From the IMG/VR virus record IMGVR_UViG_3300041405_000400: a stretch of DNA of 20,000 nucleotides; one strand, given 5' to 3'. The notes under the pieces are model-generated. The model had not been told where the DNA came from, ran no database searches, and saw only the letters and a list, made by a program, of their open reading frames with translations. The DNA comes from an uncultured virus (IMG/VR IMGVR_UViG_3300041405_000400) (Duplodnaviria > Heunggongvirae > Uroviricota > Caudoviricetes). This document shows positions 2,574 to 19,688 of the stretch, piece by piece (within the stretch, counting starts at the first letter, position 1; each line of letters starts with the position of its first letter). The translations under genes were made by a program, and so were the position numbers.

Positions 2574-3680
2574 TCAATCAAACGCCCCGGCGCGATAGAG
2601 TCTTTCCAAATTATGGGCTGACCTAAGGTGCTTCTCCGTGCGATTCAAGAAGCTGCTGATGGAACCATTTCTCAGTGAAAAGCAGCAGTCTGGCCGCACA
2701 TGACGCTGGGTAAGCATGCTGGTTGAGGTGGTGGTAATCAACACCTGGGCAGTTGACTCAAGCGCACGCTGAAAAGTAGACCCAGAGGCTAGATGATGAA
2801 GACCATCCATGTCATCGATGAAGATGAACGATGCCTGCTTGCGCTCTGACTCAGCTGTCTTCATCCAGAAAAAGAAGGTGATCAGCGTCCTTACCCCAAC
2901 TGACGTGTTGCGCAGCAAATTCATGGTTTGGTTGCCGATTCGCTGCCCTATGAATGCTTCGCCGTCCAAATTTTCTGCGGTCAAGCGGTAGCTCAGCCCG
3001 CACTCACCCAGGAACGAGACTAGCTCATCGAGCCAGCCATTTTTCAGGATAGCGGCGCCAAGGTCTCTTTTCCCCTGGGTAAACCCAATGTAAGAATTGA
3101 CATCGACCGCGCTGAAATACAGCATATTTTCTACGGAGCTGATAAATTTCTTAAAGCATTCATTCGCTGGGTTTTTTTCGAGCAGCGAGTTTTTGTGAAT
3201 GTATGAGGCGATTGAAATGGTAGAGCTGGAAAGATCTCGCTTCAAGTGCTCGGCACCATCTGCGAGGATGGTGGCGTTTCCACCAAAACGGCGATCAACT
3301 TCCGCGTAAAGGCCCCCATCGATTATTATGCGTTCGTACACGAGATCTCCTGATGCTGAACGAGCGTACGCATAGGTCAGATCCTGGTGATCAAATCGGA
3401 ATTGATAGGTGAATTCCATCATCTCAGTCCCACTGCCGAGGCTCATGTCAGAATCGTGGCTGCCAATTACGTGACTATTCGTAAGGTGGCGAGTCAGGTC
3501 GAAAATCGCCATTCCCAAAGCGGTTTTTCCTGCACCTGAGTTGGCGAGGACAATGCCAGTCTTCACCAGCCGATTCGTAACCGACGCCTCGCTGAAATCT
3601 TGGCGACCCACAGCGCCGAAGTCCAAAAACAACATTTCATCAAAGCATCGAAATCCGGTCACGCTGAAATAATGGAGCAT
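2574..3680 (-). CDS. ABC-superfamily/AAA_21 (AbiEii-like) ATPase with degenerate motifs
   Basis: N-terminal FSVTGFRCF, Walker A-like ANSGAGKT, signature-like SVGVR, Walker B FIFIDD, QVLITTT, RPDC and C-terminal LRSAHNLERLYRAGAF. Confidence 0.8.
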   Translation of the reverse strand: MLHYFSVTGFRCFDEMLFLDFGAVGRQDFSEASVTNRLVKTGIVLANSGAGKTALGMAIFDLTRHLTNSHVIGSHDSDMSLGSGTEMMEFTYQFRFDHQDLTYAYARSASGDLVYERIIIDGGLYAEVDRRFGGNATILADGAEHLKRDLSSSTISIASYIHKNSLLEKNPANECFKKFISSVENMLYFSAVDVNSYIGFTQGKRDLGAAILKNGWLDELVSFLGECGLSYRLTAENLDGEAFIGQRIGNQTMNLLRNTSVGVRTLITFFFWMKTAESERKQASFIFIDDMDGLHHLASGSTFQRALESTAQVLITTTSTSMLTQRHVRPDCCFSLRNGSISSFLNRTEKHLRSAHNLERLYRAGAFD

Positions 3681-3803: not shown

Positions 3804-4607
3804 TCAGGGCTTCCCAGCTCCGTTAATGTAGGTGTCGTAAGCTGCCAGAAACCCAGGTCGATACTCGGCAACATCGCCTTGTAGGTGGTCTTCAATTGTA
3901 TCTTGTATCTTGGCATTCCAAAGCATATCGCGATAAGCATTGGAAAATTCATAGGCCAAAAACATTCTATTCACACATTTGAATTTTTCAATGTCGTAGA
4001 TCAATTCGCCAACGCTGGTGATATGGGTGATCGCCACCCTATTCCCGTTGATAAGTTCAATGGTTCGAGGCTTAGTTAGCTTCCCAATTTGCAGCCTAAC
4101 AGGTCTATGCATTTCTTCTTCAGAAAACTCATAACCCCAATCATAACGTTGGCCGCTTTTGCTTTTAATTTTATTTATTTCAGAAAATTTGAAGTTCTTT
4201 TCAGTTCGTTCCATACCATCAATATCAAACCTGAAGTACTTCGAGTTATGTTGCTTCTTCTCTACCCAAAATAGTCGATTCACAAGCTCTGCCAAAACAG
4301 TTTCATTCCGGTAATTTTTGACATGTTCTACAGTGTCAAAATCCGTTAGAAATTCAACCGTGTGCCGTGGATTGTTGAGCCATTCGTTGGTGGGAGTGGT
4401 AATCGTTCGGGCATCTACAGGCGAATAGCTACCGGCTTGATTGGTCTCAAAACTTAGAATGATCCCGTCTAGTCCGTTATTCTGATAGACATCGTTTTTC
4501 TCGGAAGTGTACCAAGTCACCGTTTTTTTGAATGGGTTACCATCCTTAAGACTTGTGACTTTAATGGTCGTTGCTGGAGGAATGTCACGTACGTCTGAAA
4601 TTTTCAT
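3804..4607 (-). CDS. Hypothetical protein (AT-rich gene)
   Basis: 267-aa ORF with GGGA RBS. Visibly more AT-rich than its neighbours. No recognisable motif. Confidence 0.75.
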   Translation of the reverse strand: MKISDVRDIPPATTIKVTSLKDGNPFKKTVTWYTSEKNDVYQNNGLDGIILSFETNQAGSYSPVDARTITTPTNEWLNNPRHTVEFLTDFDTVEHVKNYRNETVLAELVNRLFWVEKKQHNSKYFRFDIDGMERTEKNFKFSEINKIKSKSGQRYDWGYEFSEEEMHRPVRLQIGKLTKPRTIELINGNRVAITHITSVGELIYDIEKFKCVNRMFLAYEFSNAYRDMLWNAKIQDTIEDHLQGDVAEYRPGFLAAYDTYINGAGKP

Positions 4608-4620
4608 TGGCGATCCCTGA

Positions 4621-4824
4621 TTAGCAGAAGGGTGCTATCGATGGAATATCGAAATGGATTGGACTGTCAGACGATGGGCTGCCGGTGCTTTTCTTCTTAT
4701 CTGACTTTTTCTTCTGGTTTTTTTCGGAGGCGATTTTGCTCGACGTGGTGTTGGTGTAATTGCTTGAAGTGCCAGATGGTTCAGGTACATCAAAACCGAA
4801 ATCAATTTCCATGGTTTGTCTCAC
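4621..4824 (-). CDS. Small low-complexity Ser/Lys-rich hypothetical protein
   Basis: 67-aa ORF (the start may be the internal Met in MEIDFGFD) that ends 13 nt before the next start. Confidence 0.45.
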   Translation of the reverse strand: MRQTMEIDFGFDVPEPSGTSSNYTNTTSSKIASEKNQKKKSDKKKSTGSPSSDSPIHFDIPSIAPFC

Positions 4825-4905
4825 TGTGTTATTAGGAATTCATGTGATTGGGCATGAGTAACGGAGGGCGCAACAATTAATTATTGTGAGCCCCAATACG
4901 TGGAC

Positions 4906-5097
4906 TCAGGCATTATCTTTGGATGGGTATTGCTTGTTGAAGGCGGCAATCATCGCCTCACTGCCCTTCTCAGCTAGCAATTTTCTCGCCCCCAACAAAA
5001 CTGGATCATCATCCTGGACGACAGAAGGGATCTCAAGCACGGTGTAAGGCCCGCGTTGTACGGCCTTGATCATTGCTTTTGGTTCATTATTTTCCAT
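4906..5097 (-). CDS. Hypothetical protein
   Basis: 63-aa ORF whose start overlaps the stop of the upstream ORF, suggesting translational coupling. Confidence 0.65.
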   Translation of the reverse strand: MENNEPKAMIKAVQRGPYTVLEIPSVVQDDDPVLLGARKLLAEKGSEAMIAAFNKQYPSKDNA

Positions 5098-5518
5098 AAC
5101 TGGCCCACGCAGGTTGAATCGCGATGATGGTGTAGTGGCAACTCAAGGCGTCACCGATGGAGTGTGAAAATGCGCGCCATCCTTTACGGTTGGAGCCATC
5201 GTGATCAGGCTCATCGCCGTAATCGGTTTCTTTCAACCAGATTGTCGCCAGTTGTGCTGCGCCAAAAGGATTGATGTCTCGGCCAAGTGGTTCTGAATGC
5301 CGGTCTTCATGCCAGAGAAAGATCATGGTAGGCACGCCATCGGCGTCCTCAATCAACCGTGTCATGTGATCGTTGGTGGGAATACCGAAGTGTCGGGTCT
5401 TCTCCTTGAGCTTGGCATAACGAACGTGAGCCGCTTTGCCGCCCGTCATGGCCAAGCGGATGACCAATTCAAGTTCTTGGTCGCCGATTGAGGTTACATC
5501 GATAGAAAGGTTATCCAA
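5087..5518 (-). CDS. Hypothetical protein, phage-like
   Basis: 143 aa, TTG start with AGGT RBS. The C-terminal PDHDGSNRKGWRAF...IIAIQPAWASYGK looks like a conserved family motif. Confidence 0.7.
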   Translation of the reverse strand: MDNLSIDVTSIGDQELELVIRLAMTGGKAAHVRYAKLKEKTRHFGIPTNDHMTRLIEDADGVPTMIFLWHEDRHSEPLGRDINPFGAAQLATIWLKETDYGDEPDHDGSNRKGWRAFSHSIGDALSCHYTIIAIQPAWASYGK

Positions 5519-5547
5519 TGGAGCTACCTGTTCAATGTGAAGAAAAT

Positions 5548-5576
5548 AAAAAAAGACCCGTCAGTGCGGGTCTTTT
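5548..5576 (-). terminator. Intrinsic terminator of the large ncRNA candidate
   Basis: AAAAGACCCG-TCAGTG-CGGGTCTTTT hairpin, with a 7-nt U tract on the minus strand (5554-5548). Confidence 0.85.
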
Positions 5577-6100
5577 GGTCGAAGCCTTCCCGCCAGCTTC
5601 GTATTTTATCTAACATTCAGTCCTTCAGGCGTCTTAGCGGCTACGCCACCATTGGATCGGCTGTCGTTCTGGTGTCGCGGGTAACTCTGTTCGCGCATAG
5701 AGGCTTTGCCGACTCCGGCTCCGCCTTTGGGTATCGCTACTTGAAGCTGATTAGTGCCTCCGACAACCAAGATTCCGGTCTCTCAGTTGTTTTCGAGCTT
5801 CGAATTCCACAGGAACATGTGGATTTAATTCGACTGGGGCGTGACACGCAACAGGTCAAAACCTGCTGGATCATCTCTCTGCTATCCTGCGCACCTTCGA
5901 CTCACAGGAGTGGTAGTCCCTCTGACCGCATTTGCCAGAGCCTATCTGCTAAACACATGGAATCATCCAGGTGTTGCTGGTCTGCTAGGTCAGCACAGCG
6001 TTGACCTCATTACCACTCCCAGCCGTCGCCATGGAGTTTACGACCCTTGGCAGGGATTGACGGCAAAACATCCAGCCATCAACCATCTGTTTCCTGCTTG
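5548..6100 (-). ncRNA. Large (~550 nt) structured non-coding RNA candidate
   Basis: Own promoter (6107-6135) and terminator (5548-5576). No minus-strand ORF of 60 aa or more. More than 12 complementary segment pairs, including long-range 5865-5871/6070-6076, 5907-5915/6011-6019 and 5617-5627/5742-5750. Confidence 0.75.
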
Positions 6101-6106
6101 GATTAC

Positions 6107-6135
6107 AATATATCGCTCAGAACATCGCCTGTCAA
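6107..6135 (-). promoter_or_regulatory. Sigma70-type promoter driving the large ncRNA candidate
   Basis: Minus strand TTGACA (6135-6130), 17 nt, TATATT (6112-6107), with an AT-rich UP-like tract at about 6138-6162. Confidence 0.75.
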
Positions 6136-6223
6136 TGTTTATGTTTTATTATTTATAAAAATCTGCGATTACGTTGCATCGCGAATAGCGTCTGGTCTTT
6201 AACCATGGCGACTGCTTGAACGC

Positions 6224-6577
6224 TTATTTCTTTTCAGGATCGCAGAAGCTGGCAACTTCAATGTCATAATCGCCAGTTTTTTCATTTTTGACGATGGATT
6301 TCAGATACTGCTGACAATACACAGGTCTGTCGTTCTGGGTGGAACGGATCTTATACAGCTTCAGACGTTTTCCGGCCACGTCTCCCTCAATAAAAGAGAC
6401 GTTATTCAGTGCGGGAGCGCTGTTAATTTCTAGCCCTGGGGTGGCGGGTGCCAATGCAGGTGTTGCTGCTTGAACTTCAGGTGCCTGTCGGTTCTGATGA
6501 GCACAGCCGGATAATGTGAGCACCAAAAACGCGGCACTTAGGATTGTGATTGATTTTGAACTGCGTAAATTTAACAT
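6224..6577 (-). CDS. Putative lipoprotein
   Basis: Basic N-terminus, hydrophobic stretch and lipobox LSGC, followed by an Ala/Pro linker. GAGGA RBS. Two further Cys could form a disulfide. Confidence 0.8.
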   Translation of the reverse strand: MLNLRSSKSITILSAAFLVLTLSGCAHQNRQAPEVQAATPALAPATPGLEINSAPALNNVSFIEGDVAGKRLKLYKIRSTQNDRPVYCQQYLKSIVKNEKTGDYDIEVASFCDPEKK

Positions 6578-6601
6578 CTTTATTCCTCTAAGTTATTTGT
6601 A

Positions 6602-7198
6602 CTACATTCCGCTAATTACGAAAAGTGGATCGAAAAATACCGTTCTGATTTTGTAATCGATGTGTTCGTCATACAAATGTCCCAAATAGATCGGGCTGAT
6701 TTGATTGATGACCGTATGCAACTGCTTGATGTGCTCAAGGCCATTATTTTTTACATCGTCTGGCAATTCCCAGGCAGTCGCGATCTTGATGAACGCTGCT
6801 TCTGTTTGGGTTTGATCGCAAAAAAGAGGAATGCCATGAGTTGACTCAACTATTTGTTTGTTGAGCCAGCTGAAAATATCGGATTGTGATTCCGTGTCAG
6901 TATTCGTGGGCTTGGGGTGCTGATACTGAAGCCAGAAGGTTGAAATCAGGCTACCGTTGTCGATATGCATATCTAGACACAGACTGTATCGCGTATCAAA
7001 AAGCGTGATCCCATCACCATCAAAGCGATCAAGATTTTTACTTTCGCCCAAAAACATATCCAAGGTGAAATAGCTGCAACTATCTTCATCCAAATCGGTG
7101 GAACTGGTGCCTTTCAGTGAATCAAAAAGCGCTTGATGATCATTGATGAGCATTCGAAGATATTGATGTGCAGACATTCTGGACTTCATGTGACCCAC
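6602..7198 (-). CDS. Hypothetical protein
   Basis: 198-aa acidic ORF (the start may be a downstream Met). No confident family assignment. Confidence 0.7.
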   Translation of the reverse strand: MGHMKSRMSAHQYLRMLINDHQALFDSLKGTSSTDLDEDSCSYFTLDMFLGESKNLDRFDGDGITLFDTRYSLCLDMHIDNGSLISTFWLQYQHPKPTNTDTESQSDIFSWLNKQIVESTHGIPLFCDQTQTEAAFIKIATAWELPDDVKNNGLEHIKQLHTVINQISPIYLGHLYDEHIDYKIRTVFFDPLFVISGM

Positions 7199-7225
7199 CT
7201 TGGGTTTTGGTATTTTCGTGGTTAC

Positions 7226-15988: not shown

Positions 15989-16543
15989 CTAGCCTTCCGT
16001 GCCAGACAACCAACCCGGCTCAGTGGCTGTTGCCAGCCATTCACGTAGCGAGCCAGCATCTTTACCCGGCTCATCCTCGCTTCCCCAACGCTCATCTAGC
16101 AGTGTTTCACCGGTAAGTGTCACATCATACGGTTCATCATCCCCGACAAGCTCATGCATCAGCTCCAGGGCTTGCTCAGGCGACGTGGCGGCGAACCAGT
16201 CAGATTCCCCGACTTGATAGCAGCTCAATCCTGCCGGGTGGATCTGATCGCCCAAAAGATCCTTGTTTGTTGATTGGCGAACAACACGAACACTCCGAAT
16301 TTGACCCAGTGTTTCAAAGGCGTCTGGATCTTCGCGGTGCCAATCATTTTCGCCGACAAACGTAGCTCGATCCCAGCGCCGGGTGCGTACACCGTTTTGA
16401 AGGATGCAAACCATGTAGTTGTCTGTCGTTCTGTTTGCTTTAACGATGTTCATGGCGTTCTCAACGTCAGACGCTGAAATGGTTTTGTTTTCACCGCTGT
16501 TAGTGCGAACGGTCACTTCAATTTTTGATGAATCTGGCTGCAT
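15989..16543 (-). CDS. Hypothetical protein (probably two domains)
   Basis: 184 aa. The acidic C-terminal half reads YQVGESDWFAATSPEQAL...PGWLSGTE. Confidence 0.75.
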   Translation of the reverse strand: MQPDSSKIEVTVRTNSGENKTISASDVENAMNIVKANRTTDNYMVCILQNGVRTRRWDRATFVGENDWHREDPDAFETLGQIRSVRVVRQSTNKDLLGDQIHPAGLSCYQVGESDWFAATSPEQALELMHELVGDDEPYDVTLTGETLLDERWGSEDEPGKDAGSLREWLATATEPGWLSGTEG

Positions 16544-19381: not shown

Positions 19382-19405
19382 AAAAAAGAGGGCCGAAGCC
19401 CCCTT
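19382..19405 (-). terminator. Intrinsic terminator of the ~270-nt ncRNA candidate
   Basis: Minus strand AAGGGGGC-UUCG-GCCCUCUU followed by more U residues, with a C(UUCG)G tetraloop. Confidence 0.85.
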
Positions 19406-19653
19406 AGGTGCGTAATATCAAATTCTGTACGGGCGAGCCGCTGCCGGAGACACGTCTTGGGCGCAAAGCACCATTGTTAAATGGCTGATCTGTTCAGTCG
19501 AAACAACTCCCTTTTCGAGAAAGGGTCTCATTCCCATGAGCCTAGAACGATGCACCTACTAGCACGCTTTCGCTTAAGAGTTGGTTACGTTCATTACGCC
19601 GTTACCATACAGCTAACTGATCAGAAACCTTGCCGAACTTCTACTACGCTTGA
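19382..19653 (-). ncRNA. ~270-nt structured non-coding RNA candidate with two predicted pseudoknots
   Basis: Own promoter and terminator, no credible ORF. Nested helices 19485-19490/19619-19624, 19504-19509/19578-19583, 19509-19514/19520-19525, 19527-19531/19536-19540 and 19542-19545/19559-19562. Long-range pairings 19405-19411/19552-19558 and 19410-19416/19593-19599. Confidence 0.7.
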
Positions 19654-19659
19654 GATTTA

Positions 19660-19688
19660 ATAATAACAAAACGGCAGCCTGAAGTCAA
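19660..19688 (-). promoter_or_regulatory. Sigma70-type promoter driving the ~270-nt RNA candidate
   Basis: Minus strand TTGACT (19688-19683), 17 nt, TATTAT (19665-19660). Confidence 0.65.

Follow-up and report, generated by a model that had tools for sequence, protein, structure and literature searches.

A very probable gene for a non-coding RNA of about 550 nt, outside the catalogued families, in DNA of an uncultured virus

We analyzed a stretch of 20,000 nt (20 kb), called the window below, from the uncultured virus of IMG/VR record IMGVR_UViG_3300041405_000400. The genes of the window are for the most part small and without an assigned function. On the minus strand, a promoter and a strong U-tailed terminator, both pointed out in a preliminary description made from the letters alone, were found to enclose an interval with no coding signal in any frame. 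The features of this interval and the gene behind it are as follows.

6136..6165, minus strand: A/T-rich, UP-element-like stretch directly 5′ of the −35 hexamer, as read from the sequence
6107..6135, minus strand: sigma-70-type promoter, TTGACA-17-TATATT (6135–6107), with 11/12 consensus matches
5548..6100, minus strand: predicted primary transcript of ∼550 nt, its ends (∼6100 and ∼5548) placed by the promoter and the terminator
5985..6086, minus strand: ORF of 33 codons, stop included, with an AGGA Shine-Dalgarno sequence at 6095–6092, 5 nt before the ATG
6055..6084, minus strand: predicted 5′ hairpin, 10-bp stem 6084–6075/6064–6055 and 10-nt loop (mean pair probability 0.90)
5907..6019, minus strand: candidate multi-hairpin domain suggested by complementarity, a 9-bp helix 6019–6011/5915–5907 enclosing hairpins 5975–5952 and 5940–5920
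5849..5868, minus strand: predicted hairpin with loop UUUG (pair probability 0.97)
5763..5790, minus strand: predicted 10-bp hairpin with CCGG inside an 8-nt loop (pair probability 0.94)
5545..5576, minus strand: intrinsic terminator, 10-bp stem (5 GC), 6-nt loop and a run of seven U (pair probability 0.95); hairpin and T-run occupy 5576–5551
5087..5518, minus strand: gene for a 143-aa protein, with no promoter of its own, starting 30 nt past the terminator

Promoters of this quality mark unit heads throughout the window: all eight sigma-70 sites with at least 11 of 12 matches are located where a transcription unit begins.

18781, 9931, 2460, 10629, 7762, 12807, 6135 and 13971: sigma-70 sites with 11–12 of 12 matches, each at a unit head

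By our own estimate eight such sites are roughly 30 times the chance expectation, which suggests that the region is transcribed at a high rate by the host polymerase. The interval had been described as a stand-alone gene with its own promoter and terminator, but the next gene follows closely and lacks a promoter. Between 6135 and 3991 the minus strand lacks any promoter site that matches at 10 or more of the 12 positions; thus, the genes 3′ of the interval probably depend on read-through of the terminator, and the unit is not strictly self-contained.

A codon-usage score (log-likelihood) trained on the 19 neighbouring genes was below zero in all six frames of 5548–6106 and above zero in the own frame of each of the 19 flanking genes (0.08 to 0.34). 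No ORF of 60 aa or more exists on the minus strand between promoter and terminator. The earlier statement that the interval has no credible ORF is nevertheless too strong; it overlooks the 33-codon ORF at the 5′ end, which has a good ribosome-binding site and is discussed below. On the plus strand, an ORF of 155 aa overlaps the interval. Among 5.8 billion protein clusters it had a single match, a 96% identical form of 109 aa that is ended by a stop codon arising from a change at 5866; a second form, of 115 aa, stops at the same place. The stop codon in the relatives indicates that the plus-strand frame is not maintained.

An index of sequencing runs showed 20 runs from 17 studies sharing part of 5400–6300, and eight of the 20 were RNA libraries; one of the DNA runs may be where the window itself comes from. 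Four runs were compared in detail, two of DNA (X2 and X3) and two of RNA (X6 and X13); the RNA contigs described here therefore come from two of the eight RNA runs. The other runs (X4, X5, X7–X12 and X14–X20) shared 19–51% of the sampled words and were left out as evidence on expression or habitat. The soil metatranscriptome X6 yielded one contig of 521 nt at depth 211, spanning 5569–6089 with five differences from the window. The peat metatranscriptome X13, from a separate study, yielded three contigs (5611–5956, 5927–6074 and 5927–6065). Depth was zero in both RNA runs in all other bins of 4500–7200; the DNA runs spanned the full 2.7 kb. Of the outermost contig ends, one falls 11 nt downstream of the predicted start and the other within the terminator stem. 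DNA contamination would cover the flanks as well, so that contigs free of flanks speak for an RNA origin. A discrete transcript had been predicted, and the confinement of the metatranscriptome contigs to the interval bears this out, the minus strand and the exact ends being those expected from the promoter and terminator; the contigs themselves give neither strand, true ends nor RNA level.

The interval is also strongly conserved. In DNA contigs of relatives, divergence from the window is ∼4–6% in the flanking genes and ∼1% in the RNA. Run X3 has 46 differences in 4501–6141 and 61 in 6208–7200; those listed within the RNA are at 5858, 5866, 5984, 6071 and 6102. The 559-nt RNA therefore has at least five differences, and the 2040 nt of flanking sequence have ∼102 (Fisher P = 1.6e-6). 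For X2 and X3 the RNA count of five is a lower bound; a share of sampled words of 0.51 gives an estimate of at most ∼7, with which P becomes 3e-5. The count for X6 is exact, five in 521. The best-conserved part is 5548–5857, with no difference among those listed for X2 and X3; here, the antisense-ORF protein P0014 is unchanged as well.

The X3 relative carries two larger changes next to the RNA. Just 5′ of the −35 hexamer, 1436 other letters replace 6142–6207, with the core promoter kept; the ends of this insert look like inverted repeats, and it may be a small insertion element. On the other side, a deletion of 28 nt disrupts the 143-aa gene that follows the RNA, with the RNA intact. Members of 92 and 42 aa in the protein cluster of this gene fit such a deletion and presumably correspond to the X3 relative.

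We searched for known families at several levels. Rfam gave no match at gathering score in the whole window. With permissive filters applied to 5400–6300, the best match was the rimP leader (E 0.77), aligned to the terminator only; ROOL, GOLLD, OLE, HEARO, raiA, tmRNA, RNase P and introns were absent even at E up to 10. ARAGORN found neither tRNA nor tmRNA in the 20-kb window, which together with the Rfam models confirms the earlier impression that tmRNA and RNase P hallmarks are absent. In a full-text literature search, judged from its search results, we found no publication on such an RNA.

A search for homologs by BLASTN or nhmmer had been proposed. The sequencing runs provided near-identical relatives; none below ∼90% identity was retrieved. 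With the RNA as query, blastn (‘distant’ mode) of phages, Escherichia coli genomes and plasmids returned nothing beyond the window’s own lineage. Exact words (a 20-mer in viral contigs, a 23-mer in genome contigs) gave no homolog; a 20-mer in metagenome contigs hit 14 loci, rejected as chance matches in coding DNA with no further similarity. Nothing came from two neighbouring proteins used as bait in viral and genome contigs, nor from two larger proteins of the window used in viral contigs. BLAST against loci and whole contigs of relatives of the neighbouring genes, as well as nhmmer --max on 64 loci (1.02 Mb) of distant relatives, recovered the window’s own copy only.

Two covariance models gave the same picture. 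Model R1 found only the window copy in 76 sources, and had no hit in 46 whole records or in three further ones. The 46-record search left out 13 of 59 loci (L019, L045, L048, L069, L075, L078, L081, L084, L086, L087, L090, L091 and L092), stretches of which were covered by the search of 76 sources. Model R2 likewise found only the window copy, with none in 49 records. Both are single-sequence models built on predicted folds; therefore, these blanks are weak evidence. The genome of jumbo phage RaK2 showed no similarity to the RNA (nhmmer --max on 20 ORF-free gaps; R1 and R2 on the whole genome), the repeats among its ORF-free gaps being promoters and tRNAs. Since the phage and plasmid records searched contained no further homolog, the RNA may be of recent origin and limited to a single lineage.

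Two sequence signals were considered and dropped. A sponge for Rsm/Csr proteins was rejected, with 13 GGA motifs found and 12.4 expected. A triple UAGCAGA was rejected as a signal as well: its chance occurrence is ∼0.1 by our own estimate, and its first copy is altered in all four runs compared.

Taken together, RNA-library contigs limited to the interval, its conservation, the cut antisense ORF and the absence of an Rfam family indicate that the RNA gene is very probably real. We characterize it as very probably a non-coding RNA gene, discrete and expressed at a high level, from an uncatalogued family, and put the probability that a real RNA gene is present, with the RNA as its main product, at about 0.8. 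In this respect the preliminary description, which had proposed a non-coding RNA gene, either of a known large class or of a new one, is upheld: the locus looks like an RNA rather than a protein gene.

The claims made about its structure fared less well. The 559-nt RNA has a predicted minimum free energy of about −200.3 to −200.6 kcal/mol, compared with −178.8 ± 7.7 in 100 dinucleotide shuffles (z-score −2.85); a second run with 30 shuffles gave −3.1. As controls we took 12 non-overlapping windows of 556 nt from the same strand, between positions 1 and 13756: one had a z-score of −4.63 and two had −2.87 and −2.34. Folding beyond chance is thus present to a moderate degree only, and is matched or beaten by one to three of the 12 controls.

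All 13 pairs of complementary segments listed in the preliminary description do occur at the positions given there; nine of the ten pairs with equal arms are perfect, the tenth pairs at nine of 10 positions, and three pairs have unequal arms. Their proposed nesting into multi-way junctions is not favoured: with the helices enforced the energy is −176.6 kcal/mol, close to the shuffle mean and well above the free minimum of about −200. The helix thought to close the large domain (5865–5871/6070–6076) has two uncompensated changes, at 5866 and 6071, in three of the four runs (X2, X3 and X6). The thermodynamic fold shares the proposed local hairpins 5975–5952, 5940–5920, 5868–5849, 5790–5763 and 5601–5580; the long-range helices are absent from it. 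The candidate domain at 5907..6019 is the minimum-energy structure when this stretch is folded alone, not within the full-length RNA.

The relatives reached are all ∼90–99% identical and provide ∼10 variable sites, too few for covariation. Changes at 5858 and 6071 fall in hairpin loops; those at 5790, 5984 and 6000 turn a Watson-Crick pair into G-U; those at 5866, 5861 and 5961 each weaken a pair. In the hairpin 5849..5868, the relatives’ change at 5858 converts the loop UUUG to UUCG and the change at 5866 converts G-U to U-U. In the hairpin 5763..5790, the change at 5790, deduced from P0005, converts A-U to G-U. These few variants appear compatible with the modelled thermodynamic fold, and carry no statistical weight. 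The CCGG loop of this last hairpin (5780–5773) might, on the predicted fold, be followed as a lead to a homo-oligomer made of RNA only.

A diverged contig of X13 bears on the 5′ hairpin. Read by hand, from one contig and with the 3′ arm assumed unchanged, its 16 loose end letters would pair at nine of 10 positions with the 3′ arm 6064–6055, one G-U pair becoming A-U; the loop would shrink from 10 to 6 nt, and the change at 6071 falls in this loop.

We considered several other explanations of the locus. The first is a cis-acting leader or attenuator of the operon running from 5518 to ∼2574, in which the terminator would be the switch and the abundant RNA a terminated by-product. The layout is indeed that of riboswitch and attenuator leaders: promoter, putative structured leader, terminator and promoter-less gene, the 143-aa gene lying only 30 nt beyond the terminator with no promoter site as far as 3991. 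Moreover, GCGGG at 5593–5589 can pair either with CCCGC at 5681–5677 or with CCCGC at 5570–5566, inside the terminator, which could provide a choice of antiterminator. This alternative pairing, however, is only 5 bp long; Rfam gave no match to a riboswitch, T-box or leader family; one relative with an intact RNA has lost the integrity of the first downstream gene; and the RNA is 4–6 times better conserved than the genes under its supposed control. To our knowledge, 550 nt is also far beyond the size of known attenuators. We hold a leader to be unlikely; if it were one, it would be unusually long and unusually conserved.

The second alternative, somewhat less probable, is a small-protein mRNA or dual-function RNA that would encode the 33-codon ORF’s peptide (6086–5985) ahead of a structured 3′ part of 410 nt. 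The layout of this ORF resembles that of the protein-coding units of the window, and its codon score, +0.13, is inside the range of real genes. Its ATG stands 20 nt past the −10 hexamer; at the five other near-consensus promoters with a clear start, Shine-Dalgarno sequence and ATG are found 27–34 nt past the −10. As judged from sequence, the ORF may or may not be translated. On the other hand, it belongs to no protein family, with one marginal match (to a protein of 1227 aa) among 1.84 billion representatives; the frame is broken in the diverged X13 contig under either alignment tried by hand, while the 5′ hairpin appears to survive there; and the best-conserved part of the RNA is outside the ORF. 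A type I toxin mRNA, as a special case, is opposed by the peptide, which in our own reading has no hydrophobic stretch typical of such toxins, and by the plus strand, where no promoter for an antisense RNA was found.

Third, the transcript could be a remnant with no function of its own, e.g. a decayed gene behind a strong promoter. One could cite for this the restriction of homologs to one lineage and the unexceptional fold energy. Decay, though, predicts faster divergence than that of the neighbours, and the RNA diverges 4–6 times more slowly; besides, no frame retains a coding signal. We regard a remnant as quite improbable. Finally, divergent membership of an existing large RNA class (e.g. 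ROOL, GOLLD, OLE, HEARO or raiA), raised in the preliminary description for the first three, is very improbable: size, promoter-plus-terminator layout and mobile-element setting are alike, but none of these families matched even at E up to 10 and the window has no tRNA.

PHROG matches in the window include a PolX-like nucleotidyltransferase, a NinI-like phosphatase and AlkB. Relatives of the PolX-like protein were found in 28 phage records, mostly of jumbo phages, and in 63 plasmid records, mostly of Pseudomonas and Xanthomonas megaplasmids, with 23–32% identity among the 12 records listed; the family has 52 IMG/VR loci, all at ≤31% identity, and protein relatives at a shorter distance carry the labels Hafnia (63%) and Pseudomonas luteola (37%). 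A further protein has relatives on plasmids:

15989..16543, minus strand: protein of 184 aa, its N-terminal part a PilI domain of the plasmid thin-pilus family

The C-terminal half of this protein matches, at 67–71% identity, hypothetical proteins encoded by 317–483-kb Pseudomonas megaplasmids, and in pKF715A the matching gene is near the relaxase. This protein hints that the replicon is perhaps a megaplasmid rather than a phage. Proteins of the window are encoded on a contig of 442,984 nt, and the contigs that carry their relatives reach 1.14 Mb. Either a jumbo phage or a megaplasmid would fit the replicon; with a plasmid, the presence of the RNA in several RNA data sets would be more easily explained. 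The host is likely proteobacterial.

The family of the 143-aa protein has four homologs and five IMG/VR loci. In none of these five distant relatives did we see an RNA-like gap beside the family gene; the sole gap, in L018, holds small ORFs. All members of the family (A1; L017–L021) begin with MDNxxIDVTS and share a EPDHDGSNGKGWR motif that is nearly invariant; IMG/VR contigs that encode the family are as large as 347 kb. The 347-kb phage contig L018 also carries a permuted tmRNA of alphaproteobacterial type at 1497–1809 (Rfam, 108–114 bits). A neighbouring protein of 117 aa gave weak lipoprotein-like leads only (scores ≤0.88). The 368-aa protein (2574–3680, minus strand) is 30–34% identical to an ‘ATP-binding protein’ of small plasmids and of Vibrio ‘PE’ elements; the carriers are enterobacterial and Acinetobacter plasmids of 4–25 kb and PE elements of roughly 10 kb.

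Elsewhere in the window we saw a second promoter-terminator unit, of ∼270 nt (19386–19688, minus strand), with TTGACT-17-TATTAT at 19688–19660 and a terminator at 19405–19386. Its part 19532–19628 is 88–91% identical, over ∼87–97 nt and with ∼45 identical bases running, to an intergenic stretch of Pseudomonas jumbo phage Psa21, a phage otherwise unrelated to the window. The unit has no Rfam match and a fold z-score of −1.9; an exact-word search of IMG/VR returned one contig only, whose length (305,260 nt) and coordinates are those of Psa21.

Returning to the RNA gene, we propose the following course of events. The sigma-70 promoter, behind its A/T-rich stretch, would start transcription near 6100, and the 10-bp hairpin with its U-run would release most polymerases near 5548, leaving a 3′-end capped by the hairpin. 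The RNA, ∼540 nt long, would fold into a chain of local hairpins and accumulate far above the neighbouring messages, with the occasional read-through of the terminator supplying the promoter-less genes downstream. By analogy with ROOL and GOLLD, it may then be a stable RNA that acts in trans, in a structural or decoy role. The replicon itself would be a giant mobile element, jumbo phage or megaplasmid, of soil Gammaproteobacteria. This fuller statement, with an RNA gene whose stable product works in trans as a structural RNA or a decoy, has in our judgement slightly better than even odds. If it is true, the RNA offers a new handle on the manipulation of hosts by giant mobile elements.

One could speculate further that the RNA founds a new class, one of large and compact RNAs that resist RNase, carried by a giant replicon of rhizosphere Gammaproteobacteria and forming a particle with itself or with host proteins. 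A stable particle would explain why nearly identical stretches of ∼520 nt were recovered at high depth in soil and peat metatranscriptomes while the adjacent genes were unseen there; still, we consider this extension doubtful. Few products of microbial genomes are as poorly understood as the large structured RNAs of phages and plasmids, such as ROOL and GOLLD, of which very few classes are known. The present case has practical advantages: its likely proteobacterial hosts allow easy genetics, public soil and peat RNA data show a discrete product, and with a textbook promoter before it and a textbook terminator after it the RNA can be cloned and tested as is.

Three known systems invite comparison. 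Attenuators and RNAs of processive antitermination, such as put of phage HK022, likewise are structured RNAs that follow a strong promoter and precede a terminator and promoter-less genes; the RNA described here is 5–8 times longer, is better conserved than the genes behind it and matches no catalogued leader. RNAIII of Staphylococcus aureus, with 514 nt, encodes the 26-aa delta-haemolysin and regulates by base pairing. It resembles the present, putatively structured RNA in its size of ∼0.5 kb, in a short ORF close to the 5′-end and in having its own promoter and terminator; the difference is that the ORF here is not kept in the diverged X13 variant.

The closest likeness is to ROOL and GOLLD. 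As described in PMC12286853, they are encoded by phages or prophages, often beside tRNA islands; ROOL was studied at 659 nt and GOLLD often exceeds 800 nt, and in one strain ROOL can equal 16S rRNA in abundance. The RNA described here differs in that it has no tRNA island within the 20 kb, lies in a likely proteobacterial host, and has a predicted fold rather than helices backed by covariation, pseudoknots or an oligomer. Its replicon is phage-like, with the PolX-like protein and the other PHROG matches, or megaplasmid-like. ROOL and GOLLD share with it the size class, the non-coding nature, the mobile element and the lack of an assigned function, and the abundance of ROOL finds a parallel in the depth-211 contig of X6 (PMC12286853). 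Thus, although it showed no similarity to their covariance models, the RNA would by analogy work most like ROOL and GOLLD, which it resembles in size, setting, abundance and lack of assigned function.
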